A stretch of 64,000 bases of DNA from Candidatus Hydrogenedentota bacterium (GTDB lineage Bacteria; Hydrogenedentota; Hydrogenedentia; Hydrogenedentales; SLHB01): assembly GCA_963668025.2 (NCBI GenBank), contig CAXXTH010000010.1, positions 768,001-832,000 on the forward strand. Direction: 5' to 3'. Positions within the stretch are counted from its first letter, which is position 1. Each line of letters begins with the position of its first letter. The notes under the pieces were generated by a model that saw only the letters and a list, made by a program, of their open reading frames with translations, did no database searches and was not told the DNA's origin. Shown one piece after another: positions 1-55,346 of this stretch. A program made the position numbers and the translations under genes.

Positions 1-969
1 CTGCTTACATTTCCGTTCATATTCCCGGTGTGGCTGCAACGCCATTTTATCGCATGAAGTTTTGCGAGAGCCGGAACTGCCGATAGTCAGCGCGTACAAA
101 CTGATCGGATAGCATTGCACGGAATCAATCCGTACATCCCTGTGGGGTTGCACTGCAAGGCCTCCCGCGCTTAGCAGTGTATTCCCGGCCATGGATGAAG
201 GAACGCCTAGCACTTCCGTGATGAACGCATGCGCACCCGCCAGCGTCGGCATGAGAGCCTCTACAGGGAAGGGGGCCTGTTTGTCATCGCACAACAGGGG
301 CACCGGCTCAACACGGGGCACCTGGATGGCCTCAATGGCCACGCTATTGCTTTCGGACAACTCTTTTAGTAGCGCCGCCAGCGGTTCAGGGTCAGGTACC
401 GGGCCGAATTCATCCCACTGGGGGCGTTGCGCCTTTACCCAATCGCATATGTCACCCTTGGGGGGCAGTTCCGGCAAACGGCATACAACCACTTCGGGGG
501 AGGGATCAAGCTTACTGAGACACGCGGCCACGGCTTGGGCGTATTGCTCTCCGGGTTCATCGTTATCGGGAAGAATGATCACCCCGGACATATTCCGCAA
601 TGGCTTCCAATCGGCCTTGGATGCCGCCTGTGCGCCGCCTAAAGAACATACAGCAGATAGACCCATACCGCACAATGCCGCAACACACTTCTCGCCTTCC
701 GCCACATAGACGGGGCCGGTATCGAACACAAGAATTGATTCACGTCCAAACAATGGGTGTGGTTCAATTGCGCCCGCCGCCCATGCGTTGCCATTGCGTT
801 TAAAAAATGGCAGGGTCACCTTGGATCCATCGGGGAGATCGTAACGCGCCACATACCCGATGATATTCTTGTTTTCGTCTCGATAGGTCCAGAGATGGCG
901 GAATATCCCGCCTTTATAAGCGGTCGATATTCCGGGTGGCATTAATTGGATGGGAGCCGTTGCGCTCAT
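1..969 (-). CDS. Toprim primase fused to a DUF3987/YfjI-type helicase-like domain (3' end beyond window; absent from the ORF track)
   Basis: My translation from ATG 969: MSATAPIQL...VYVAEGEKCV...IILPDNDEPG...KGDICDW (Toprim) then PFPVEAL...PISLYALTIGSSGSRKTSCD (Walker A); open to position 1. Confidence 0.85.
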   Translation of the reverse strand, partial: MSATAPIQLMPPGISTAYKGGIFRHLWTYRDENKNIIGYVARYDLPDGSKVTLPFFKRNGNAWAAGAIEPHPLFGRESILVFDTGPVYVAEGEKCVAALCGMGLSAVCSLGGAQAASKADWKPLRNMSGVIILPDNDEPGEQYAQAVAACLSKLDPSPEVVVCRLPELPPKGDICDWVKAQRPQWDEFGPVPDPEPLAALLKELSESNSVAIEAIQVPRVEPVPLLCDDKQAPFPVEALMPTLAGAHAFITEVLGVPSSMAGNTLLSAGGLAVQPHRDVRIDSVQCYPISLYALTIGSSGSRKTSCDKMALQPHREYERKCKQ

Positions 970-1253
970 GCACACCCCCATTCCGCCGCCAAGTTATCGA
1001 GTGCGGCGCGAAAGCCAAGATCATACCTCGCTTGCTGAAACGCGATTATGTCTTGGCCACGCACACCACATGCGAAGCACTTATATGCACCCGTTTCCAG
1101 ATTCGCGGAAAAACTGGAAACGTGATCTTCGTGGAAGGGGCAAAGCCCCGAAGCGTAACGGCCTCGGGGCTTGTACCTCTGAATGGCGTTTGAATAGAAA
1201 TCGCGTGGATCAATTTGCTTGACACGATCACGGAGAGATGGTATAGTTTTCAT
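966..1253 (-). CDS. CHC2 zinc-finger (primase zinc-binding domain) protein
   Basis: GLCPFHEDHVSSF...YKCFACG motif; RBS TAAGGA before ATG 1253; ATGA overlap with the Toprim gene. Confidence 0.85.
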   Translation of the reverse strand: MKTIPSLRDRVKQIDPRDFYSNAIQRYKPRGRYASGLCPFHEDHVSSFSANLETGAYKCFACGVRGQDIIAFQQARYDLGFRAALDNLAAEWGCA

Positions 1254-1292
1254 ACGGAATTTCCTTAATGTTTTTGCGCCCATAACGCTCGG

Positions 1293-1511
1293 TCAAGCGT
1301 TGTGGGCGTCGCCATTTTCATTGATCCATTGCTGAAACGCACCTTCATGAATAAGCACTCTCTTTCCAATTTTGCGAATAACCTTGTCTCGGAAGCCGTC
1401 GATGTTCCGAAAAATGAGATGCCGTAGACCGCTCTCACTTGGCCAAGGATTATTCCGCGCCCATTCGCGCACCGTAAACAGCCGATTGCTTTGTAAACCT
1501 GTGTATTCCAT
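1293..1511 (-). CDS. AlpA/excisionase-like small DNA-binding protein
   Basis: LFTVREWA...PSESGLRHLIF...KIGKRVLIHEGAFQQWI winged-helix pattern typical of satellite regulators placed before primase genes. Confidence 0.7.
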   Translation of the reverse strand: MEYTGLQSNRLFTVREWARNNPWPSESGLRHLIFRNIDGFRDKVIRKIGKRVLIHEGAFQQWINENGDAHNA

Positions 1512-1580
1512 GTCACCATCCTTCACTAGTGGGGATTAATCCCCGTTCCAAAAAAATGGGCACAATGCCCAATCACACAC

Positions 1581-1609
1581 AGCTTAAACTATTCTATTAC
1601 TATTGTCAA
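1581..1609 (-). promoter_or_regulatory. sigma70-type promoter for the replication module
   Basis: TTGACA (1609-1604)-17 bp-TAAGCT (1586-1581) on the minus strand; perfect palindrome GGGGATTAATCCCC at 1531-1544 downstream. Confidence 0.6.
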
Positions 1610-1636
1610 GTCCTGCTAAACAGGATAACGCTAGAC

Positions 1637-1891
1637 CTATTTGAACATCGCCTCGATCTGCCGCTGGGTCGCTTTTTCGCGCCGAAGCCGTAAAAGTTGC
1701 TCGTGCTGCTGTTCATCCCACGTGGGGGGAGCATCCTGATATTCGGCAAATCGCTCCTGGAGCCGGTCAATCGCATCGAGCATGGCCTTTAGGTGTCCCA
1801 AGCGTTTGTTCTGGGGAAGTTTTGACATATTCTCGCCGTGCGCAATAACGGCCTCGATTGCCAGCTTTAGATTGTATTTAACCTCGATCAT
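1637..1891 (-). CDS. Hypothetical helical protein (84 aa)
   Basis: ORF with GAGGT RBS before MIEVKYNLK; co-oriented in the operon. Confidence 0.55.
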   Translation of the reverse strand: MIEVKYNLKLAIEAVIAHGENMSKLPQNKRLGHLKAMLDAIDRLQERFAEYQDAPPTWDEQQHEQLLRLRREKATQRQIEAMFK

Positions 1892-1898
1892 AGTTACC

Positions 1899-2372
1899 TC
1901 ACTTGTCGGGCCTGCTGCCCGATTTGTCCATCGTTTCTTTGAAAGTCTTGAAGGCAACTTTTGCCAGTATCTCTAAATCGCTATCGCTCGCTTTGAGTGC
2001 TTCTTCCCGCAAATTCGGCATATTTGCTCGTCTGCTTAGATTCCATGCGCGGGGTGAAGGCATGCGCACTTCCAGGCGATTAGGAGATACCTTGATAACA
2101 TACTGGGACATCGTGTTCTCTTTAGATTCACCTGTATATGTAAGCGGATTTGAATGGCCGAACCTGCGGAACTTTCGCGCCTGGTATTTCGCCGTCCGTG
2201 GTTGATATCCATATTCTTGCGCGCCCTGAGTTGTGAAGTGTTTTGGGAATAGCTTTTCACGCCAAAATTCCGCAACGGACAGATTGGCTTTTTGCCGCGC
2301 CTCTTTTGCGGCATTGGCCATGCCCCGGGGCGTTTTACCTGGAAAAATAAGAGTAGGTTTGATTCGGATCAT
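1899..2372 (-). CDS. Phage virion morphogenesis / neck-tail-completion-like protein
   Basis: HFTTQGAQEYGYQPRTAKYQARK...PLTYTGES resembles the basic P-R/S..Y..RK...L..TG pattern of Mu gpG/P2 gpS-like proteins; abuts the upstream gene. Confidence 0.5.
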   Translation of the reverse strand: MIRIKPTLIFPGKTPRGMANAAKEARQKANLSVAEFWREKLFPKHFTTQGAQEYGYQPRTAKYQARKFRRFGHSNPLTYTGESKENTMSQYVIKVSPNRLEVRMPSPRAWNLSRRANMPNLREEALKASDSDLEILAKVAFKTFKETMDKSGSRPDK

Positions 2373-3872
2373 TTATTCACCTCCCATGAGCGCTTGGCCA
2401 CGGTCGGGGCGGGTGCTGGGTCGTTGATTCCTAAAAGTTCGCGTTTGCTCTTTGGTGGCTTCGGTCAATTTGTCGAGCCGGTCAGTGATCGCTTTCACAT
2501 CTTGACTATCCAGCTTCGCATTAATTGATTCCTTCACGGCATATTGCGCTAAGCTCGCAGCCGGATGCTTCCATTTTTCTACTTCACCGTAAATACTTCC
2601 AGCCGCCTGTAAGTAATGGCCTTCCTGGAATTGTTCACTTGCACGCGATAATGCACGCATAGATCGGCGCATGCCGTACCAAGGAATTCCTTCATCTGTC
2701 GTCAACCCGCCTAGTCCGGCTTCCTCCATCTGCAAGCCTGCTTGCTGATTTTCTAGCGCCATCTGTTGGCTTTCGTATGCGCGCCGTCCGGTCATGCGCC
2801 GCGCCGCCGCCGCCGCCCGCATTTCGGCTGTTTGCTGCTGCCTCTGTAACTCCGGGAATTGCGCTTGCTTCGATAACATTAGATCCCGGGCGTATCCAGC
2901 GGGCTTTTGCGCCGCCGCTTGTTGGGCGAAGAAATCTGCGTTCTGCTCAAGCCATCCAAGCGCTTGGCCTGTCTCTTTTGCCTCAATTCCGTATCGTTTA
3001 TATTGCGTCCAGTCGGCAGCATCAGCGCCCATTACCTGCTTGATGCCAAGCGCCATTTGCGGTTCTGATACCTCTGCCGCCGAATTTTTCCCATACATTT
3101 TTGCGACTTGCAAAGTGAGTGGGGAGTCTTGCCTTAGTCCTTTTGATATATTACTAACCACGGTAGGTAATTGATCACGCGGGGCCGATCTCGATGCGGC
3201 AGAAGCGGCAGCCAAGCCGATATCCAGGCTCGAAAAACCGCCAGCTTGCGGCATGACTCGGGCGATATCCGAAACTTCAAGATCAGATGCTTGGGCGTGA
3301 AAAGCCGTCAAATCTGTGGTTTGTTGCGGAGTTAGTCCACGCGCCGTTCCGCTCAAAATCGCCGTTTCTGAATCTTCCGTTTTGGCCCCGAACTGATTTA
3401 GAAGCATCATCTGATTGGCCATCACTCGGGCCTTTTGTTCATCGCCCTGCATGCGGGATAGCGCCCTCGCCCATATCTCTGTACTATCAGCGGCAGAGAC
3501 GCCATAACGCGCGCCGTGCATGGTGGACTCTGCCATAATTCTAGGATTGTCAGACACCATCATTAAGCCGGTCGATTTCTCGATCAGGGAATTGACAGCG
3601 GTTCCAGACCGCTGGGCCATTTCCTCAAATGCGCGTAATGCGCCTGTGGCAGCATCAATGCCGGTCTTCACGGAGAGCACGCCCCCGGCCATTTTTATAA
3701 GGTCGGATGTACCCTTGCCTGCGAAATCAAGACCCCTACCGGCGCGCCCTCCACTGCGTTCTACGCCATCCAAGGACTTAACAAGGCCTTCGATTTTTTT
3801 GGTGAATGAGACAACATCTTGCACAGCCTTGGCCGTGTCAGCGTCCATCTTATAGATTAAGTCAGAAGGCAT
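2373..3872 (-). CDS. Short tape-measure-like (or DNA ejection) protein, 499 aa
   Basis: N-terminus LIYKMDADTAKAV..., Ala/Gly/Gln-rich helical composition, C-terminal ITDRLDKLTEATK coiled coil; follows the capsid gene. Confidence 0.55.
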   Translation of the reverse strand: MPSDLIYKMDADTAKAVQDVVSFTKKIEGLVKSLDGVERSGGRAGRGLDFAGKGTSDLIKMAGGVLSVKTGIDAATGALRAFEEMAQRSGTAVNSLIEKSTGLMMVSDNPRIMAESTMHGARYGVSAADSTEIWARALSRMQGDEQKARVMANQMMLLNQFGAKTEDSETAILSGTARGLTPQQTTDLTAFHAQASDLEVSDIARVMPQAGGFSSLDIGLAAASAASRSAPRDQLPTVVSNISKGLRQDSPLTLQVAKMYGKNSAAEVSEPQMALGIKQVMGADAADWTQYKRYGIEAKETGQALGWLEQNADFFAQQAAAQKPAGYARDLMLSKQAQFPELQRQQQTAEMRAAAAARRMTGRRAYESQQMALENQQAGLQMEEAGLGGLTTDEGIPWYGMRRSMRALSRASEQFQEGHYLQAAGSIYGEVEKWKHPAASLAQYAVKESINAKLDSQDVKAITDRLDKLTEATKEQTRTFRNQRPSTRPDRGQALMGGE

Positions 3873-3893
3873 ATATTTCTCCGTTGCTTAGTT

Positions 3894-3957
3894 GGGGTGG
3901 CGGCGGAAGTGCACACCGCCACCCCTAAAATGGCGCTCGCCGCCAAACGAGCGCCGG
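3894..3957. other. Two GC-rich hairpins between the capsid and tape-measure-like genes
   Basis: GGGGTGGCGG/CCGCCACCCC (3894-3925) and GGCGCTC/GAGCGCC (3932-3957); no U tract on the coding strand. Confidence 0.5.
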
Positions 3958-3991
3958 TTATCCGTGAGGCGAGTCACGGCAAGGAGCCTGG

Positions 3992-5923
3992 TTACGAAGC
4001 GCCGGTGCATTTTCGAGAGCAGCGCCAATCAGTCATACTAAGGCCTACGTCTAAACGCACATCCCAGCCAATGCCCCATTCCCCCCTATCGAGCGAGAAG
4101 GTGCGTAGCGCCGGGATTTCATCACCGCCAGCGAGATGCACAATCTCGATAGACGGGGAGTTTTGTGTGCTAAACAGGTAATACGCGGTGTTGCTACCAG
4201 AATGAGTTACGCCGGTTCGGGGATCAACCACGCCATCAGCGCTCAGGCGCTCTTCGGAAATAATATCCAGTCCCAGCACATTAAGTGGGTTGCCCGCGCC
4301 ATCGCCGCTATCCTCGAAACGTTGCGAACTCGAAACGATTTTCGCGGCCAAGAAATACAGCGCGGAAGGAACCACAAGCGTCTTGGCCCGCAAGCCTAAA
4401 ACCGTTTGGCCTACACGCGTGCTTTGCAGCGCCGCGATCTGTGCTTCAAGAGCCGTTGCAGATAGCGCCGTGCCTGTCGTTCCAAGGTTGTTGTGATCGC
4501 CATGGAAGAAGGCCGTACCGTCCGCCGCGTTTGCGTTTGCTAGTATAGCGGACCACACAAAATCAAGTTTGCTTCGCATGCACGCCGCGCCCATTCGATA
4601 GGGTGCATCCGTGATCGCGCCCATATGATCGGCTGCAAGCGTTTCAATGCCTACCTGAAACATCTGCGCAAACGAGTAAACCCGATACGTCTCGGATTCA
4701 TCTGCAAAGTACGTATGGTGCGCTTGGCCACCCGGCGCAAGCTGATTGGCCGTCAAACTCGGACCGTATTTAACACGTTTTTGTGTTTCAAAATCTGGGG
4801 CAGTGATTCGCGGAAGGAACCGGGTGGTGTCTTCGCTTTCCGCCAAACCTTTCAGTAGGGACATACGAACGGAGCCGCTCAAAATATCGCTAAACGTTAG
4901 CGTGCTTTCCGCGCGTGTCAGCACTTCGCGCACAGCGCGTTCTCTGGAGCCGGGTACGCGCAAGCCCGCCGCCCTTAGAACTTCCTTCGCTATATCGCTG
5001 TAGGTTAAGCCGCGCTGCCCCTGCGTTTTTTCTAGCGCCGCCTTCCACTGCGATTGCTCTTCATACGGAAGCATGGACAACGCCCGCGCGCCGTCAAATG
5101 TCTCGGGGAGCAATTGAGCGGAACGATGAACTGCCGGATTCATCTGGAAGCCGAATTGCAGATCAATACCCGCCGGGCCTTGCGGATACAGCTTGGCGTC
5201 GATTGCATCCAGGATTGCCGCGCGCACCTGGTTTTCATCCATCTCGCCAGACAGCGCCCGCGTGCGTAGCTCCTGGTTCACGCCATCGGGATACTTATCG
5301 AGCACCTTCCGGATCGCCAATTCGACTTTTGGGTCAAGGGTGCGTTCTTCGAGTACAGTAGTCGTTTGTTCTTCAGGCATAGGTTTCAATCCTTCTGCGC
5401 ATGAGCGCGTTTTTGCATTTCGGTCCGCGCCTATCGCGGTACAACTCAATTCCTTCAATTCCCATTTCGTAGACACACGTAATGGCATGTTCTCAGGGGC
5501 AGTATATGAGCGGCCATTGACGATCTCGGTCTCGCCCGCCTTAATGTCTCGCTTGTCCAAAATGCGATAGCCAACAGACACATCACGTGCATGGCCATCG
5601 CGGTATTTTTCGTAGACGGGTTGCGCATCCGCTGCAAAGTAAATCCGACCAACCATGCGGCCACCGTCAATATGGATGTCTTCCACATGGCCTAAAACGT
5701 CATGGATGCTTGAGCGGCTGTGGCTATCGCACACTGGCAAATACTCGGGGAGATCCGCGCCGTGCATATCCAGGACTTCGGTGTAGGGATCCCAGCCGCC
5801 CATTTCTACGGGGGAATCAGTAGCGAGAACGGCCTCCACTGAACGGGTGGCGTCGTCTGCGGTGCTGGGCGTGATGGTGAGAGAGCGGGTTGTTAGATCG
5901 TTACTCATCTCGCTCATGCCCAT
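3992..5923 (-). CDS. Prohead protease (HK97-type) fused to a Mu gpT-like major capsid protein
   Basis: Protease motifs PVCDSH, DVSVGY, WELKELSCTAIGAD; capsid part PDFETQKR...ETYRVYSFAQMF...FHGDHNNL...TLVVPSAL...WDVRLDVG. Confidence 0.85.
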   Translation of the reverse strand: MGMSEMSNDLTTRSLTITPSTADDATRSVEAVLATDSPVEMGGWDPYTEVLDMHGADLPEYLPVCDSHSRSSIHDVLGHVEDIHIDGGRMVGRIYFAADAQPVYEKYRDGHARDVSVGYRILDKRDIKAGETEIVNGRSYTAPENMPLRVSTKWELKELSCTAIGADRNAKTRSCAEGLKPMPEEQTTTVLEERTLDPKVELAIRKVLDKYPDGVNQELRTRALSGEMDENQVRAAILDAIDAKLYPQGPAGIDLQFGFQMNPAVHRSAQLLPETFDGARALSMLPYEEQSQWKAALEKTQGQRGLTYSDIAKEVLRAAGLRVPGSRERAVREVLTRAESTLTFSDILSGSVRMSLLKGLAESEDTTRFLPRITAPDFETQKRVKYGPSLTANQLAPGGQAHHTYFADESETYRVYSFAQMFQVGIETLAADHMGAITDAPYRMGAACMRSKLDFVWSAILANANAADGTAFFHGDHNNLGTTGTALSATALEAQIAALQSTRVGQTVLGLRAKTLVVPSALYFLAAKIVSSSQRFEDSGDGAGNPLNVLGLDIISEERLSADGVVDPRTGVTHSGSNTAYYLFSTQNSPSIEIVHLAGGDEIPALRTFSLDRGEWGIGWDVRLDVGLSMTDWRCSRKCTGAS

Positions 5924-6392
5924 CCTTCTTACCTCGAACAAAAGTATGGAGCACTTCTAGAATCGGAGAATCGGGCATGATCGTCAATATGTCCATCATC
6001 CATTCTTCCTCTTTGGTGGTAGCACAGAATTTGTGCCCAAAGCCCAGATGATGCCGAATGAGCGCGCCGCGTACTCGACCATATCCAAACACGCTTATCA
6101 TCGCGGCCAGCGGGGAAAGTCCATCATCCAGGGTCATTGTCAGCGCCTCCCATGGAGCGTTCACCCCAAATGAGGATATCGCCGCATCCGGCATTTCCCA
6201 CTGTTTATCCTTAACGAAGAGCGAACCTGCTACAACGGCTTGGAGTAGATCATTGAGCCGTTCACGTGTTTCTTTGTGGGGGATGGATGCACCACGCTCC
6301 AACGCGCCCCAAGCCACGCGGCTTATCCCCAACAGACCAGCGATCTCTGCCTGGGATAGCCTCAAGGCCTTTCGTGTCTTTTCAAGGTCCAT
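5901..6392 (-). CDS. XRE-family helix-turn-helix regulator with C-terminal extension
   Basis: RKALRLSQAEIAGLLGISRVAWGALERG...P; RBS TAAGGA; 3' end overlaps the capsid start. Confidence 0.85.
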   Translation of the reverse strand: MDLEKTRKALRLSQAEIAGLLGISRVAWGALERGASIPHKETRERLNDLLQAVVAGSLFVKDKQWEMPDAAISSFGVNAPWEALTMTLDDGLSPLAAMISVFGYGRVRGALIRHHLGFGHKFCATTKEEEWMMDILTIMPDSPILEVLHTFVRGKKDGHERDE

Positions 6393-6441
6393 GACAAATT
6401 CCTTAACTTTTTCCAAGCAGCCCATCTGCTAGTATACTGAA

Positions 6442-6470
6442 ATTATACACGAAAGATAAGTACTTGTCAA
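6442..6470 (-). promoter_or_regulatory. Consensus sigma70 promoter of the XRE-capsid operon
   Basis: Exact TTGACA (6470-6465)-17 bp-TATAAT (6447-6442); inverted repeat ACTTG-T-CAAGT (6462-6472) over the -35. Confidence 0.8.
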
Positions 6471-6700
6471 GTGGTATTCGTCAATCCTAAAATAATGATG
6501 AATTCGGGGTGTAGCACCTTCATTTCCTTCGCCGCCTGCGCCATAGCCTCACCTCGGAAGTCGTTAGGTTCCTCGTCCGAGCGAGGAACCTTTGCGCCTT
6601 TCCCGTAATGTTCGCCGGACTCTTTCTGTCGCTCCTTCGCCGCAGGCTTGTACATCTCGGATAGCTTAGCGGCTGAAAAAGGGGTGTCAGTGTCCACCAA
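6467..6700 (-). pseudogene. Fragment resembling the AKERQ/HTH linker of phage ParB-like proteins
   Basis: AAKERQKESG...RGEAMAQAAKEMKV, truncated on both sides. Confidence 0.35.
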
Positions 6701-7078
6701 AAATCCCTAGGAGGCCTGAAAACGCTCAAAACCTGTCCTAGGGGGCATGTTTCGGGCTGATTTGCCCTCCTAGAACTTTATGGAATTTCACATTATGAGT
6801 AGGTTAAAATGGGCATGGGTTAATATGATATATGAATAAAAGCCTGTAAAAGCCCTAATTGCAGTAGTTTAGGGGTGTCAATGTGCTATAGGTGGGTCGA
6901 TGCCCGGCCCGCCCTTGTCCTTTGGTGTATCACAGGACCCGTACACTGGTACGGCATTTCGGCCTTCCAGAATGCCCCCAGAGCGACGATCTCCCGCAAG
7001 GCTGTATCATCTATCATGCTATCCCTCGCCCTGTGTCGGCCAGCGTGGTGCGGTGCTGGGTCACTGCCGAATGAGACA

Positions 7079-7312
7079 CTAAACGCCTGCTTCAAGAAGC
7101 GATACCACACCACTTCCATGGACGGAATTGTATAAGGACTCGATATACTCGATGATGGATTCCCTGGAAAGATAGATGCGTCGCCCGCGTTTGTAGCCTT
7201 TGATTTTTCGCAACTCAAATAATTCAACCCAGTGTTTCCATGAGTGCCGGAACTCTGCCACTGCCTCATTAGGTGTAATGTCATGGCGGACGATTTCCTT
7301 ATCCATAATCAT
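7079..7312 (-). CDS. Excisionase-like HTH protein
   Basis: ITPNEAVAEF...KIKGYKRGRRIYLSRESIIEYIE; RBS AAGGAGAG; near the integrase. Confidence 0.75.
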   Translation of the reverse strand: MIMDKEIVRHDITPNEAVAEFRHSWKHWVELFELRKIKGYKRGRRIYLSRESIIEYIESLYNSVHGSGVVSLLEAGV

Positions 7313-7368
7313 CTCTCCTTTTTTTTATGGCGGGCCAGCACACGCCAGCCCGCTGCCACTCATTTCTA

Positions 7369-7659
7369 TTATTCGGCCAGGCTCACCGCCAAATATTGCC
7401 AGTCTTTAGGCTTAAAGCTGTGCGAAAAATCCAATGTGCTAAATTCGAGTTCATCATTGTTCAAATTGGCTTCAATGTGGATCTGATTGTCGACAGTGAC
7501 ATAAATCTCCCCACTCTCAACAGAATCACATGTGAATCGTTCCGGTGCGATTCCAAACCGTATACCGGCCAGATAGCGCGCCTTGGCTCTGAGGAATTCG
7601 ATCATTAGAACGGAAAGGCTTTCGAGAGATTTGGCTTGTTCGATAATTTGCATAGACAT
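7369..7659 (-). CDS. Hypothetical protein (96 aa)
   Basis: ORF with TAAGGA RBS, co-oriented between int and xis. Confidence 0.55.
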   Translation of the reverse strand: MSMQIIEQAKSLESLSVLMIEFLRAKARYLAGIRFGIAPERFTCDSVESGEIYVTVDNQIHIEANLNNDELEFSTLDFSHSFKPKDWQYLAVSLAE

Positions 7660-7728
7660 GGTGGGAATTCCTTACGGAGGCGATATAATTCTACGGACGG
7701 CGGAGCCTTCGTATCCGCTGCTCGCATC

Positions 7729-7765
7729 GGCCTTCAGGTGTTCGAGCACCTGGGGGCCTTTTTAT
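7729..7765 (+). terminator. Intrinsic terminator on the antisense (+) strand
   Basis: GGCCTTCAGGTG-loop-CACCTGGGGGCC followed by TTTTT. Confidence 0.65.
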
Positions 7766-7800
7766 GCTCACCGGCCACAATGCCGTATGATGCCTCAAAA

Positions 7801-8036
7801 AACTTTAGCAGCTTTAGCAAACGTTAGCAAATCGCAAAAAGTCATAAGCCTTTCAGTGACATATACTTACAACAAATTTTAGCAAATTAGAAACTTTAGC
7901 AGGGTCCGTTTTTTCGCCCCTCCGTCGCAACGCTGTCGCAACCGTCGCAACCACGTCGCAAATTTACTATCTATGTAAACCTAATGACACCAATTACTTA
8001 TCATCTTCTGTCGCAGTGTCGCAACTGTCGCAAGGG
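7801..8036. repeat. Two tandem iteron-like repeat modules (TTAGCA-type and GTCGCA-type)
   Basis: (T)TTAGCA at 7804, 7813, 7824, 7878, 7895 plus variant TTAGAA at 7887; GTCGCA at 7924, 7935, 7944, 7955, 8010, 8018, 8027. Confidence 0.85.
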
Positions 8037-8386
8037 TTTGTATTTCCAGGTAACGAAATACTCATTTTTAGCATTGCTTGCTTAATATCATTCTGGAATA
8101 AATGGGAATACCGCATGGTCATGGCCAGGGATGTATGGCCAAGCACCGCGCCGATCTGTTGGAGGGTCATTCCCGAACTTGCCATCAGACTTGCAGCGGT
8201 ATGCCTAAGATCGTGAATTCTACAATCTTGAATATTCGCCCGCCTTATCGCCCACAACCATGCATGGCGGTATGTTTGATATGATCCCGGAAAGATTTTG
8301 CCCTCTTGTCCATCTTGGGCACGCTTACTCAATACTTCCATAGCGAGATCTATAAGTGGAACATCACGCCCACGATTAGATTTTTC

Positions 8387-9914
8387 GTAACACTTTAGCC
8401 GACTGAAGTGTTTTCCGGTGGCAGGGGAGGCAATTGGCCGGTGTTGAGGTAGTGGACCAGGGCGTTGCAGACGGTGCAGACGGGGTTTTGCCCGCGTTTT
8501 TTCAAAGTAAAGAAGACGCTCATGAGCACCGCTTGTATGGCGGCTCCTTGGTCGCTGCGGTTGCAGTAACTGTTTTTGCGCAGGATAACGGCAGGACGGA
8601 TGGAGCGTTCCGCCAAGTTGTTGTCGAAGGGAACATCTGATTGGCCGAGAAAAGTGAAGAGTTCATCCTGGTGTCGGCGCAGCCTTTTTATGAGGCGCTT
8701 GGCGTTGGCGTCCTCCCAGGGCGTATCGCACAAGTCCCGCAAGCGCCGGGCGAAGCGCGCGCGGCGCGAGTCGTACGCCTCCGGTTCGAGCTCGCCGCGC
8801 CGCCGCCACAGCCGGATGGCGTCGGCAATCAGGCGGCGCAGCTTTTTGGCGAAGGCGGGCCAGGCCGGGCTGGGCGATTTGTATTTCTCCACGTGCTCGA
8901 GTTCGCGCAACAAATGCACGAGGCACTTCTGCCGGGCGGCGCACGCCACGGCGTTGTACGCGGCCCAGAAGTCGGCCACCAGCGTTCCGGCGAATTCCCG
9001 CGTGAAGAACTGCTGGAGCGCCGGACTCCCCCGCGAATGGTCGATCAGGAAAAAGCTCAGCCCTTTGGTGGCGAAACACCACAGCCATCGGGTCTTGCCA
9101 TTCACGCGCCAGCCGGTCTCGTCGGCGTTGAGCACCGCCGAGTCCAGCGCTTCCTGGTGAATGGCCTCGTACCAAGGCAGGAGAATCTCCGCCAGCCTGC
9201 GCCACATGTGCAGCAGCCCGCCCGGCGTGACCTGGAAAAGCAGGTGGAAATCGAAGACCTCCACGATTTGCGAAAGCGTGTTGCCCAACACATAGTGCAG
9301 CCACGCGCTGAGGACCAGCACCCGGTTGCCCAGGGTCGCGCCCGGCAAGGCCGCCGCCACAACCGGCTCGACTTTCTTCTTGCATCGCGGACACCAGTCG
9401 CGGTGAATGGTATGCTCGGTGATTTCCGGACGGATGCCTTCGGGTATGTCTTCGGTGTAGCGCGTGCGGGTCTCCGCGCGGCGGTCCAGCGGCCCGCCGC
9501 AGTCGGGACACACCTTGGTGCGGTGTGTTTCACGCCGGTCGATACGTTCGGGCGGCACGCGCCGGCTGCCGGGGTGGCCCATCTTGCGTCCCGGCTTTTT
9601 CTTGCCGCGCACAGGCGTCTGGGGTTTCCCGTAAACTGGCTGCATGCCCGAAGGGGTGGAGGGCGTTTGGTGGGAAGTGAACGCCGCCTCGGCCTGCTGC
9701 TCCGACAGCAGCTTGGATTGCGCCAACAGGGCAAACACCACGGCATCTTCGCCCAATGCGTAGATCGCTCGGGCTTGCTCCTCCGAGAGCAGCGGTCCCA
9801 ATGGAATGCCACTTATTGCCGTCGCCATGGCGTCTTGGCCCAAAACCACAACATCTTGTAACTATATTATACCGAAACGCTACTTATAGTTGCGCCAGAC
9901 GGCTAAAGTGTTAC
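8387..9914 (-). mobile_element. IS66-family element, single-ORF (ISBst12-like) type, copy 1
   Basis: Terminal inverted repeats GTAACACTTTAGCCG; 8-bp TSD GATTTTTC at 8379-8386 and 9915-9922. Confidence 0.95.
8395..9849 (-). CDS. IS66 transposase (TnpC-like)
   Basis: CPDCG zinc finger, ADETGW, QKCLVHLLR, DNNLAERSIR motifs. Confidence 0.95.
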   Translation of the reverse strand: MVLGQDAMATAISGIPLGPLLSEEQARAIYALGEDAVVFALLAQSKLLSEQQAEAAFTSHQTPSTPSGMQPVYGKPQTPVRGKKKPGRKMGHPGSRRVPPERIDRRETHRTKVCPDCGGPLDRRAETRTRYTEDIPEGIRPEITEHTIHRDWCPRCKKKVEPVVAAALPGATLGNRVLVLSAWLHYVLGNTLSQIVEVFDFHLLFQVTPGGLLHMWRRLAEILLPWYEAIHQEALDSAVLNADETGWRVNGKTRWLWCFATKGLSFFLIDHSRGSPALQQFFTREFAGTLVADFWAAYNAVACAARQKCLVHLLRELEHVEKYKSPSPAWPAFAKKLRRLIADAIRLWRRRGELEPEAYDSRRARFARRLRDLCDTPWEDANAKRLIKRLRRHQDELFTFLGQSDVPFDNNLAERSIRPAVILRKNSYCNRSDQGAAIQAVLMSVFFTLKKRGQNPVCTVCNALVHYLNTGQLPPLPPENTSVG

Positions 9915-10731
9915 GATTTTTCCAATTCCGGGGGAATGGTTAGTATCCTCTGTTCTAAATTAATACGTTCCCATGTAAGTGTTATCAATTCCCCAAAACG
10001 GCAACCCGTAGAGACCGCCATGAGAATGAGATCCTCTAGGTTTTTGTTTTGCGATTCATGGCAAGCAACCCGTAAACGCTCCAGTTCATCTTGACTGAGA
10101 TATCTCCGCCGTCCTGGGTTCGGGCTTGGCTTTGAGACGTTATGCATGGGATTTGATTCTATGAGACCCCATTCCTTTGATGCCGTGGTAAAAACATGGG
10201 ATAGGGTTTGCAGGTATTGTCTTATCGTGGTGGGGGAGAAATCGCGGCCTTGCCTGTTCGTACCGTTTTGCAATTCTGTTCTGCAAGCAACAATATCAGA
10301 TGGACGCACAGAGCTGATTGTCATATGCCCTATTCGGGCTTGCCACCACCTAAGGTGCAGTTCTTGGGTCAATAGGACCGAAGGGCGTTTCATGTTTAAA
10401 ACTTCACGAATATACCGCTCAATGGCTTCAGACATTGTTGAAGCATGCACTTCAGCGCGGACTTCTCCGCTTATAATTTCTTGCTCTTTGGCGCGTGCCC
10501 AGTCTTTTGCATCCGTTAAGCGTCGAAATTGTTTGGAGCAACTGTGCCCATGCATGCGCACCCTAGCAAGGAAGCGTTTCTGCCCCTTTTTGGTTACGCG
10601 CTCTTCAAAATTGGCCATAAAAATAAACCCCGCTTTTTGTTAGTGTCACTTGCGTGCCACTTGGCTTATTGAAGCCCAAAAAGCGGGATTTGTCAAGACC
10701 ATGTAAGTCATTGACTTACAAGTATTTAAAT

Positions 10732-10807
10732 TGGTGAACGGGATGGGATTCGAACCCATGACCACCGGATTAAAAGTCCGATGCTCTACCAACTGAGCTA
10801 CCCGTCC
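10732..10807 (-). tRNA. tRNA-Lys (anticodon TTT), CCA encoded
   Basis: Reverse complement GGACGGGTAGCTCAGTTGGTAGAGCATCGGACTTTTAATCCGGTGGTCATGGGTTCGAATCCCATCCCGTTCACCA, 76 nt cloverleaf. Confidence 0.97.
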
Positions 10808-53447: not shown

Positions 53448-54975
53448 GTAACACTTTAGCCGTCTGGCGCAACCATAAGTAGCGTTTCGGTATAATATAG
53501 TTACAAGATGTTGTGGTTTTGGGCCAAGACGCCATGGCGACGGCAATAAGTGGCATTCCATTGGGACCGCTGCTCTCGGAGGAGCAAGCCCGAGCGATCT
53601 ACGCATTGGGCGAAGATGCCGTGGTGTTTGCCCTGTTGGCGCAATCCAAGCTGCTGTCGGAGCAGCAGGCCGAGGCGGCGTTCACTTCCCACCAAACGCC
53701 CTCCACCCCTTCGGGCATGCAGCCAGTTTACGGGAAACCCCAGACGCCTGTGCGCGGCAAGAAAAAGCCGGGACGCAAGATGGGCCACCCCGGCAGCCGG
53801 CGCGTGCCGCCCGAACGTATCGACCGGCGTGAAACACACCGCACCAAGGTGTGTCCCGACTGCGGCGGGCCGCTGGACCGCCGCGCGGAGACCCGCACGC
53901 GCTACACCGAAGACATACCCGAAGGCATCCGTCCGGAAATCACCGAGCATACCATTCACCGCGACTGGTGTCCGCGATGCAAGAAGAAAGTCGAGCCGGT
54001 TGTGGCGGCGGCCTTGCCGGGCGCGACCCTGGGCAACCGGGTGCTGGTCCTCAGCGCGTGGCTGCACTATGTGTTGGGCAACACGCTTTCGCAAATCGTG
54101 GAGGTCTTCGATTTCCACCTGCTTTTCCAGGTCACGCCGGGCGGGCTGCTGCACATGTGGCGCAGGCTGGCGGAGATTCTCCTGCCTTGGTACGAGGCCA
54201 TTCACCAGGAAGCGCTGGACTCGGCGGTGCTCAACGCCGACGAGACCGGCTGGCGCGTGAATGGCAAGACCCGATGGCTGTGGTGTTTCGCCACCAAAGG
54301 GCTGAGCTTTTTCCTGATCGACCATTCGCGGGGGAGTCCGGCGCTCCAGCAGTTCTTCACGCGGGAATTCGCCGGAACGCTGGTGGCCGACTTCTGGGCC
54401 GCGTACAACGCCGTGGCGTGCGCCGCCCGGCAGAAGTGCCTCGTGCATTTGTTGCGCGAACTCGAGCACGTGGAGAAATACAAATCGCCCAGCCCGGCCT
54501 GGCCCGCCTTCGCCAAAAAGCTGCGCCGCCTGATTGCCGACGCCATCCGGCTGTGGCGGCGGCGCGGCGAGCTCGAACCGGAGGCGTACGACTCGCGCCG
54601 CGCGCGCTTCGCCCGGCGCTTGCGGGACTTGTGCGATACGCCCTGGGAGGACGCCAACGCCAAGCGCCTCATAAAAAGGCTGCGCCGACACCAGGATGAA
54701 CTCTTCACTTTTCTCGGCCAATCAGATGTTCCCTTCGACAACAACTTGGCGGAACGCTCCATCCGTCCTGCCGTTATCCTGCGCAAAAACAGTTACTGCA
54801 ACCGCAGCGACCAAGGAGCCGCCATACAAGCGGTGCTCATGAGCGTCTTCTTTACTTTGAAAAAACGCGGGCAAAACCCCGTCTGCACCGTCTGCAACGC
54901 CCTGGTCCACTACCTCAACACCGGCCAATTGCCTCCCCTGCCACCGGAAAACACTTCAGTCGGCTAAAGTGTTAC
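53448..54975 (+). mobile_element. IS66-family element copy 2, nearly identical to copy 1, no TSD
   Basis: Same 1528-bp length and GTAACACTTTAGCCG IRs; flanks TAATTTTG and TAAAATCC differ. Confidence 0.95.
53513..54967 (+). CDS. IS66 transposase
   Basis: Protein identical to 8395-9849. Confidence 0.95.
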   Translation: MVLGQDAMATAISGIPLGPLLSEEQARAIYALGEDAVVFALLAQSKLLSEQQAEAAFTSHQTPSTPSGMQPVYGKPQTPVRGKKKPGRKMGHPGSRRVPPERIDRRETHRTKVCPDCGGPLDRRAETRTRYTEDIPEGIRPEITEHTIHRDWCPRCKKKVEPVVAAALPGATLGNRVLVLSAWLHYVLGNTLSQIVEVFDFHLLFQVTPGGLLHMWRRLAEILLPWYEAIHQEALDSAVLNADETGWRVNGKTRWLWCFATKGLSFFLIDHSRGSPALQQFFTREFAGTLVADFWAAYNAVACAARQKCLVHLLRELEHVEKYKSPSPAWPAFAKKLRRLIADAIRLWRRRGELEPEAYDSRRARFARRLRDLCDTPWEDANAKRLIKRLRRHQDELFTFLGQSDVPFDNNLAERSIRPAVILRKNSYCNRSDQGAAIQAVLMSVFFTLKKRGQNPVCTVCNALVHYLNTGQLPPLPPENTSVG

Positions 54976-55346
54976 TAAAATCCATGAAGCACACCAAAAA
55001 GATGCAAGCGTTGCTGGAGCGCATGGCGCAGATTAAGCGGATGGAGCGCGGGAAGCTCTGTCAAATGGGCGGGCGTCCCCACTTTAACCACCAGAGCTGG
55101 GAGAACGAGAAGAACGTGGTTCGCTATGTGTCGGCGCGCGAAACCGAGTTCCTAAAAGAGGCCATCAATGGCTACCAGGCTTTCATGAAGCTGGCTGAAC
55201 GCTACGTTGACGAAGTCGTCAAGCAAACCCGCCGTGAGCGCGCAAAGACCTTCCCCCCAGCGAAAAATCCCAGGCCACGTTGACAGAAAAAATCATGCAC
55301 AACAGGATAAATCGACTCTTGAGCACTATTAGATGCGTAAGCCCTG
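54976..55346. mobile_element. ISAs1-family element copy A, truncated by IS66 (small ORF and one IR remain)
   Basis: Matches the right ~370 bp of copies B and C; IR TTAGATGCGTAAGCCCTG at 55329-55346. Confidence 0.9.
54984..55283 (+). CDS. Small IS-associated protein (DUF6788-like), copy A
   Basis: MERGKLCQM...HQSWENEKNVVRYV...AINGYQAFMKL; 3 aa differences from copies B/C. Confidence 0.75.
   Translation: MKHTKKMQALLERMAQIKRMERGKLCQMGGRPHFNHQSWENEKNVVRYVSARETEFLKEAINGYQAFMKLAERYVDEVVKQTRRERAKTFPPAKNPRPR

Follow-up and report, generated by a model that had tools for sequence, protein, structure and literature searches.

We analyzed a 64,000-nt stretch of DNA from a Candidatus Hydrogenedentota bacterium (contig CAXXTH010000010.1, here C10, positions C10:768001-832000), which is called the window throughout; the genome comprises 6.15 Mb in 24 contigs and is 93.75% complete. 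The left part of the window, next to a tRNA-Lys gene, is occupied by an integrated element that encodes a protease-capsid fusion, a putative tape-measure protein and a third protein known from virion modules. This element is a sharply bounded, satellite-sized island with an unusual set of three virion genes. Its genes are located on the minus strand and form one co-oriented chain that reads away from the tRNA-Lys. The central features are given below in the order of this chain, with coordinates as window positions unless the prefix C10 is used; lengths of proteins are in amino acids (aa), IS stands for insertion sequence and ORF for open reading frame.

10732-10807, minus strand: tRNA-Lys(TTT) gene, found with ARAGORN
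10732-10777, minus strand: right copy of the attachment site (att), equal to the 3' 46 nt of the tRNA, with an exact 37-nt core at 10741-10777
9915-10618, minus strand: tyrosine integrase, N-terminal fragment (phrog_1, 9e-40; PF00589, 1.6e-7)
8387-9914, minus strand: IS66-family element of 1,528 bp (PF03050, 2.8e-42, plus zf-IS66) with a single 484-aa transposase, ORF 8395-9849
7994-8386, minus strand: tyrosine integrase, C-terminal catalytic fragment (PF00589, 8.7e-14; phrog_1, 3e-21)
5901-6425, minus strand: XRE-family regulator, 174 aa (HTH_31, 3.1e-7), first gene of the structural operon
3992-5941, minus strand: fusion of prohead protease, linker/scaffold and HK97-fold major capsid protein, 649 aa, or 641 aa from the ATG at 5917
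2373-3872, minus strand: tape-measure-family protein, 499 aa, by fold prediction and synteny
1899-2372, minus strand: virion-module protein, 157 aa, by synteny
966-1283, minus strand: CHC2 (DnaG-type) zinc-finger protein, 105 aa (PF01807, 4.7e-14)
1-981 and onward to C10:766918 (C10:766918-768981), minus strand: Toprim and DUF3987 primase/helicase-like protein, 688 aa (Toprim_2, 5.9e-5; DUF3987, 5.6e-14)

The borders of the element could be defined precisely. The initial annotation had proposed a satellite element next to the tRNA-Lys and had suggested looking for a duplicated tRNA 3' end to the left of the window; this copy was found at C10:766440-766485, where 45 of 46 nt match the tRNA-Lys 3' end including the CCA end. 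An exact 37-nt direct repeat (C10:766449-766485) corresponds to the tRNA core at 10741-10777, and a search of 40 kb on the left side detected no further att copy. The element extends 1,551 bases beyond the left edge of the window and spans 12,329 bp from att to att, or about 10.8 kb after subtraction of the 1,528-bp IS. The GC content of its IS-free unique part (10,719 bp) is 50.8% compared with 55.4% for the genome. A large prophage (>30 kb) with portal, terminase and tail genes on the left, the finding that the initial annotation had named as speaking against its proposal, is not present: in the left flank a group II intron is followed by genes for an ABC sugar transporter and for thiamine biosynthesis and by a further IS, and no phage module was found there. 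Genes for a nitrilase-family protein, a lipid kinase and an aldo-keto reductase follow to the right of the tRNA-Lys. An Rfam scan of the element matched no family.

The group II intron (1.9 kb, C10:764541-766437, with a 487-aa ORF containing RVT_1 and GIIM) ends at most 3 bp from the left att copy. Its sequence recurs in the genome in 14 other near-full-length copies with at least 99.5% identity and in one interrupted copy, and its location next to a tRNA-like hairpin may reflect a target preference of the intron. Four public sequencing runs from two studies were listed as containing the region, and no RNA run was among those listed. Among their contigs, one of 10,006 bp spans the region from the left att copy to the edge of the IS, where it ends because the assembly breaks at repeats. 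A supported excision or circle joint was not present among these contigs, which are unable to prove its absence. In the contigs of runs X1-X3 the depth was about 60 for the group II intron, about 37 for the IS and about 4.8 for the element; this excess of about 8- to 13-fold agrees with the copy numbers in the assembly.

The identity of the protease-capsid fusion, which the initial annotation had recognized, is solid. Using family profiles, the protein matched phrog_4523 ("major head and protease protein", 1.1e-77), PF25209 (2.1e-27) and NF045541 (4.1e-82); the last alignment runs end to end over residues 29-647 with 276.8 bits, which is under the 525-bit cut-off of NCBI. The residues H66, H109, S114, E156, S158 and D165 are invariant in all 18 relatives that were aligned. 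The protease and capsid parts have a normal length, and the scaffold-like segment in the middle is, with 205 aa compared with 218-379 aa, the shortest of 18.

For the 499-aa protein the initial annotation had suggested a tape-measure-like function, and both the predicted fold and the gene position in related phage loci agree with this suggestion. The protein itself gave no direct match in Pfam, PHROGs or NCBIfam. An exhaustive HMMER search identified 30 colinear relatives, mainly with lengths of 450-590 aa. An alignment-based AlphaFold (AF2) model is all-helical with a predicted local distance difference test (pLDDT) score of 76.7 and values above 90 at residues 110-360. A search of BFVD with this model returned 72 matches at E<=1e-3, and the named proteins among the top 50 were all tape measure or minor tail proteins. 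In the phage-like loci L018, L023, L028 and L029 the 499-aa family occupies the canonical position of a tape measure, which for the TP901-core type is behind the tail-tube and chaperone genes; the protein in the window does not have this position. We therefore assign the protein to a tape-measure family with moderate confidence, on the basis of the predicted fold and of synteny, the latter being the stronger argument. Other searches added little: a word-based homologue search with the 499-aa ORF returned one weak match, a profile search of PDB sequences with the family gave coiled-coil noise only, a scan of viral contigs with the protein and its best relative found nothing, and tblastn against GenBank phages with the 499-aa and the 157-aa protein found no match.

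The 157-aa protein, called neck-like in the initial annotation, is indeed a component of the head-tail section in related phage modules, and it matches no named family. Homologues are encoded in four related genomes and in 10 metagenome loci, and a word-based search with the ORF returned only the ORF itself. Phage loci with both families show the 157-aa family directly adjoining a 297-aa tail-gene family on its upstream side. In the ESM Atlas the protein is nearest to viral clusters (0.96), one of which carries Phage_tail_S. A single-sequence fold prediction (pLDDT 49.3) was too poor for searching. Judged by its position, the 157-aa protein is probably a tail-completion or neck protein.

The arrangement of these genes was compared with that in related loci. 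The capsid fusion has relatives in 55 loci, of which 51 come from metagenomes, three from viral contigs and one from a genome; a search of genome contigs yielded one distant locus only, and among the relatives 60 other genomes contributed a single, weak match. The gene upstream of the fusion was scored in loci with at least 1.7 kb of upstream sequence, where L009 is identical to L056 and was counted once in the distinct set. A portal-like gene abuts the fusion upstream in 30 of 31 loci (29 of 30 distinct ones), usually preceded by a terminase-like gene; the exception is L069, where the capsid gene is unfused. In the element the XRE gene stands in the place of the portal. The 157-aa family is present in 9 of the 27 capsid-fusion loci with at least 4 kb of downstream sequence, and the fusion, 157-aa and 499-aa families occur together in L028 and L029. 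In L018 (genome G016) a portal (phrog_21, 3.6e-63), a protease (phrog_53), a capsid gene (phrog_1005) and two small genes are followed by the 157-aa family, a 297-aa gene, a 246-aa gene, the 499-aa family and three large ORFs. The block of the 157-aa family, the 297-like gene, the 246-like gene and the 499-aa family is repeated in L023, L028 and L029. The element differs from this phage order, because its tape measure precedes the 157-aa gene and the connectors and the 297-like and 246-like genes are missing. Since the XRE gene replaces the portal, the order is changed and tail genes are missing, the gene order of the element is not a simple, single-deletion derivative of the phage order, in which the 157-aa gene and two tail genes precede the tape measure.

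A search of 135 genomes from the phylum detected the tape-measure family in seven, and it is phage-like in three of these (G016, G106 and G126). In three others, G034, G125 and G113, the tape measures are located in non-phage contexts on short contigs. In G034 (L020, G034:C94:7028-9673) a small terminase (phrog_57, 1.1e-13) is followed by a 99-aa ORF, the 157-aa family and the tape measure, and the block directly adjoins the chromosomal genes PilZ and nuoLMN; a packaging gene is thus paired with a tail ruler in the manner of a satellite. In G125 (L021, G125:C385:1-6915) a DUF5906 primase/helicase is followed by an ORF of 122 aa, an S49 protease, ORFs of 274, 68 and 91 aa, the tape measure and an ORF of 71 aa; the 274-aa protein is coiled-coil-like and no portal or tail-tube gene lies in between. 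This run, on a short contig, may be another island that manipulates capsids or tails. In G113 the tape measure is followed by a 131-aa ORF, and an integrase is located 1.3 kb away. Common to the element and these three genomes is the tape measure only, plus the 157-aa gene in G034. A PDB sequence search with two neighbors at locus L022 found nothing.

The remaining features of the element, listed next, comprise regulatory signals, a repeat cluster and small ORFs.

7837-8033, minus strand: TTGCGA-containing repeat cluster, 6-7 copies, at the end of the integrase gene
7369-7659, minus strand: ORF of 96 aa, no match in Pfam, PHROGs or NCBIfam
7079-7312, minus strand: HTH_17 (excisionase/AlpA-type) protein, 77 aa; weak match to PF12728 (E 8.4e-5, 23.2 bits), below the 27-bit cut-off
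6442-6470, minus strand: sigma-70 consensus promoter TTGACA-17-TATAAT, 12/12 positions, 17 nt upstream of the XRE start
1637-1891, minus strand: ORF of 84 aa (84-106 aa), final gene of the structural operon, unmatched in Pfam, PHROGs and NCBIfam
1557-1571, minus strand: terminator-like hairpin with T-run between the structural and the replication operons
1293-1526, minus strand: ORF of 77 aa upstream of the primase genes

The chain of integrase, excisionase, XRE regulator, protease-capsid fusion, tape-measure-like and neck-like proteins, hypothetical protein, zinc finger and Toprim/DUF3987 protein was already described in the initial annotation and is indeed present on the minus strand, the excisionase match being weak. 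Two of its labels have to be revised. Searches of Pfam, PHROGs, NCBIfam and PDB sequences found no match for the "AlpA" at 1293-1526, whose label rests on the position only. The integrase, although a tyrosine integrase is present as proposed, is not a single gene, because an insertion of the IS66-family element that had been overlooked splits it. The statement that portal, terminase, tail-tube, baseplate and lysis genes are lacking agrees with our family scans, in which none of the scanned ORFs of the element matched these families (Pfam, PHROGs and NCBIfam).

Promoter and hairpin delimit an operon of the XRE gene, the capsid fusion, the tape measure, the 157-aa gene and the 84-aa ORF. Promoter-like sites are as frequent as in shuffled sequences (7 compared with 7.2 expected), and only this one scores 12/12. 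The end of the XRE gene overlaps the start of the capsid gene, and the XRE protein gave sub-threshold matches to the repressors RstR and DicA. For the 84-aa ORF the best ESM Atlas score was 0.81, a lead at most. The primase frame is open across all 688 aa. Just downstream of the primase stop a second TTGCGA cluster with eight copies was found (C10:766729-766853); it is inverted relative to the first and consists of 10-bp tandem units. Together the two clusters bracket the portion of the element with att and integrase. TTGCGA[ACT]GG occurs 0.49 times per kb in the element and 0.032 times per kb in the genome, an enrichment of about 15-fold. From these repeats we infer candidate iterons or operators. 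We also considered arm-type integrase sites, which are unlikely, as about 1.2 kb, with the IS removed, separate the core from the cluster next to the integrase.

The IS66-family element has the inverted ends GTAACAC...GTGTTAC and is flanked by an intact 8-bp target duplication, GATTTTTC. After removal of the IS and one copy of the duplication the integrase frame becomes a single ORF of 362 aa, of which only the length was computed. Eleven other genome copies of the IS are at least 99.6% identical and one is 93.8% identical. Because the target duplication is kept and the identity to the 11 other copies is at least 99.6%, the observations suggest a recent insertion. Thus, the element is grounded by an IS in its integrase, apparently since recently. 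A second copy of the same IS66-family element is located in the window at 53448-54980 and 10 others lie elsewhere in the genome; the 12 near-identical copies indicate a recent burst of transposition.

On balance, and with confidence only slightly above even, we favor the explanation that the element is an integrative, helper-dependent phage satellite, similar to phage-inducible chromosomal islands (PICIs) or P4, which produces a shell of its own and exchanges the tail ruler of the helper for its own. Only the integrase gene is broken, and the frames of the fusion, the tape measure and the primase are full-length. Helper dependence is likely because only three virus-particle genes are carried. 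In such a satellite the XRE protein would keep the operon off until a helper phage arrives, and replication would start from the TTGCGA clusters, which would be bound by the primase-helicase of the element. The capsid fusion would build an own, possibly smaller, shell on the portal of the helper, and the tape measure and the neck-like protein would replace the versions of the helper, resulting in chimeric tails as described for the PICI-like elements (PLEs) discussed below. Terminase, portal, connectors, tail tube, chaperone, tail tip and lysis functions would be supplied by the helper. This helper might belong to the uncultured phage lineage with the order portal, capsid fusion, further genes, 157-aa family, two tail genes and tape measure.

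Several results weigh against this explanation. With its integrase split, the element can no longer excise itself by its own integrase, and neither a small terminase nor a recognizable cos or pac site was found in it. In the genome, at its completeness of 93.75%, no homologue of the terminase-like, portal-like and tail proteins of the lineage was detected, and PF03237, PF03354 and PF04860 had no match, so any helper would have to come from outside. Relatives of the integrase or the primase were found in 0 of the 55 related loci, and a close relative of the whole element was absent from the data searched; conservation of the architecture is thus unsupported. The nearest relatives of the capsid fusion and of the tape measure are only 37% and 35% identical, respectively. 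Within the tape-measure family, PhageMin_Tail (PF10145) matched 1 of 27 aligned members (0.0023) and tape-measure PHROGs matched 2 of 27, all weakly. The BFVD matches have TM-scores of only 0.22-0.45 and compare predicted with predicted folds of an all-helical protein, and a Foldseek search of the PDB with the same model yielded nothing at E<=1e-3, only designed helical repeats. For the 157-aa family 0 of 15 members matched Pfam, PDB sequences gave nothing and no named family was found; hhalign comparisons with HK97 gp10, HK97 gp11 and lambda U gave nothing either.

A more far-reaching version of the explanation is tentative at most. According to it, the element would represent a distinct satellite class that supplies exactly the shell, the tail ruler and a tail-capping protein and so obtains "private" small-headed particles on an otherwise stolen phage. 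The shortened scaffold would set the small capsid, and the element would be part of a wider, undescribed set of tape-measure islands in the phylum, to which the loci in G034, G125 and G113 would belong.

It is also conceivable, if rather doubtful, that the element is the decaying remnant either of a prophage or of a mosaic that combines an integrative element with prophage fragments. Most of the virion genes would have been lost, and the three structural genes would be leftovers without a present role. Mobile DNA is eroding the locus, as seen from the IS in the integrase and the group II intron at most 3 bp from the distal att copy, and many copies of both are spread across the genome. The structural genes are out of phage order, and no small terminase, cos site, helper or close relative was found. 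However, all genes except the integrase are intact and full-length and retain the family-invariant residues, they form one compact operon behind a 12/12 promoter, the att copies are near-perfect and the IS insertion is apparently recent. In addition, relatives of the tape measure occur without tail genes beside a small terminase, a primase or an integrase in three other genomes.

We consider it improbable that the element is an unpackaged defense island in which the fusion, the tape measure and the neck-like protein serve as decoys and disrupt virion assembly in infecting phages of the related lineage: although no packaging gene was detected, an operon headed by the XRE gene and driven by a strong promoter could already be active before infection and a satellite-borne block of tail assembly is documented for Rta of PLE11, which targets the phage tape measure (PMC12987554), the integrase, att site, primase-helicase and repeat clusters are equipment for moving and replicating, a full protease-scaffold-capsid fusion with conserved catalytic columns exceeds the needs of a decoy, and known satellites join interference to transfer, so that this proposal overlaps with a helper-dependent satellite.

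If the helper-dependent satellite is real, it would extend satellite-encoded tail manipulation, which so far is experimental only in the PLEs of cholera phages and inferred for the EPIPs (Extracellular Prophage-Inducing Particles), to an unrelated bacterial lineage of uncultured type. It would also define a minimal parts list of capsid, tape measure and neck-like protein, without portal, terminase or connector, which bears on the question of which virion parts a parasite must own for private particles. It also exemplifies a blind spot of current satellite finders, for which any tail gene is disqualifying (PMC10085698). With one IS-inactivated copy, and with no close relatives or known helper found, the element has its value as a lead.

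Comparison with published satellites showed that two further statements of the initial annotation, that the element fits no known satellite family and that capsid-forming PICIs (cfPICIs) have no tape measure, are not supported. PLEs and EPIPs already pair a satellite with its own tape measure (PMC12987554, Nature 2026; PMC12822802, a preprint of 2025), and according to the legend of its Extended Data Fig. 10 the former article also shows putative tmp genes for PLE-like elements and for a sample of cf-PICIs. Marine VEIMEs are reported to be without capsid genes (PMC9618062).

The EPIPs of Mycolicibacterium aichiense carry a major capsid protein and a tape measure and resemble the element as small, helper-dependent satellites without genes for tail tube or lysis, as far as the preprint describes them (PMC12822802). 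The EPIP genes named in the same description further include those for a serine integrase, a small terminase, a head-to-tail adaptor, a stopper and a scaffolding protein, and a primase-helicase of the kind found here is not listed among them (PMC12822802). In contrast, the integrase of the element is a tyrosine recombinase (PF00589) located at a tRNA, its capsid protein is fused to a protease and its primase combines a zinc finger with Toprim/DUF3987; no small terminase subunit (TerS), adaptor or stopper was detected. Compared by description, both share only the capsid and the tape measure, and their hosts are unrelated.

In Vibrio cholerae, PLE1, PLE4 and PLE11 build an alternative, satellite-encoded tape measure into their own virions, where it is incorporated selectively and results in chimeric tails; this is the sole experimentally demonstrated role of a satellite tape measure (PMC12987554). 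The PLEs conserve a tail assembly chaperone, some encode a baseplate hub, and they use the capsid protein of ICP1 (PMC12987554). The element differs by its own capsid fusion and its neck-like protein, and a chaperone-like ORF was not seen beside the tape measure. The types of integrase and replication gene differ as well, those of the PLEs being a large serine recombinase and RepA.

cfPICIs are similar in the presence of an integrase, a regulator, a primase and an own capsid with prohead protease and fall into a similar size class; mergers of protease and capsid were reported for cfPICIs of Firmicutes (PMC10085698). In the SatelliteFinder model of the cfPICI, as given in this source, 11 core components are defined, at least 9 are required, and tail components are "forbidden" (PMC10085698). 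The element contains the integrase (in split form), the regulator (AlpA, MerR or Stl type in the model, here XRE plus the weak, sub-threshold HTH_17), the primase-replicase (CHC2 zinc finger plus Toprim/DUF3987) and, as a fusion, the capsid with the prohead protease. However, portal, head-tail adaptor, head-tail connector, HNH, TerS and large terminase subunit (TerL) of the cfPICI core were not detected in it (Pfam, PHROGs and NCBIfam), although the 157-aa protein could be a connector-like part. Furthermore, its tape-measure-like gene would be a tail component of the type that the cfPICI and PICI models treat as "forbidden" (PMC10085698).

With P4-like satellites and AlpA-type PICIs of Gram-negative bacteria the element has in common the integrase at a tRNA, the small DNA-binding protein upstream of a primase-helicase and the size of about 11 kb. 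Its two separated clusters of short repeats resemble ori and crr of P4. P4-like satellites contain psu, sid, delta and epsilon alongside int, alpA and alpha. The first four did not turn up in the general scans of the element, in which no dedicated profiles for them were run. P4 and classical PICIs remodel the capsid of the helper and encode neither a capsid protein nor a tail gene, whereas the element has both. Taken together, the concept of a satellite with its own tape measure has already been published in 2025-2026, whereas the parts list of this element in its lineage has not, and its exact gene set differs from those of the PLEs, the cf-PICIs and the EPIPs.

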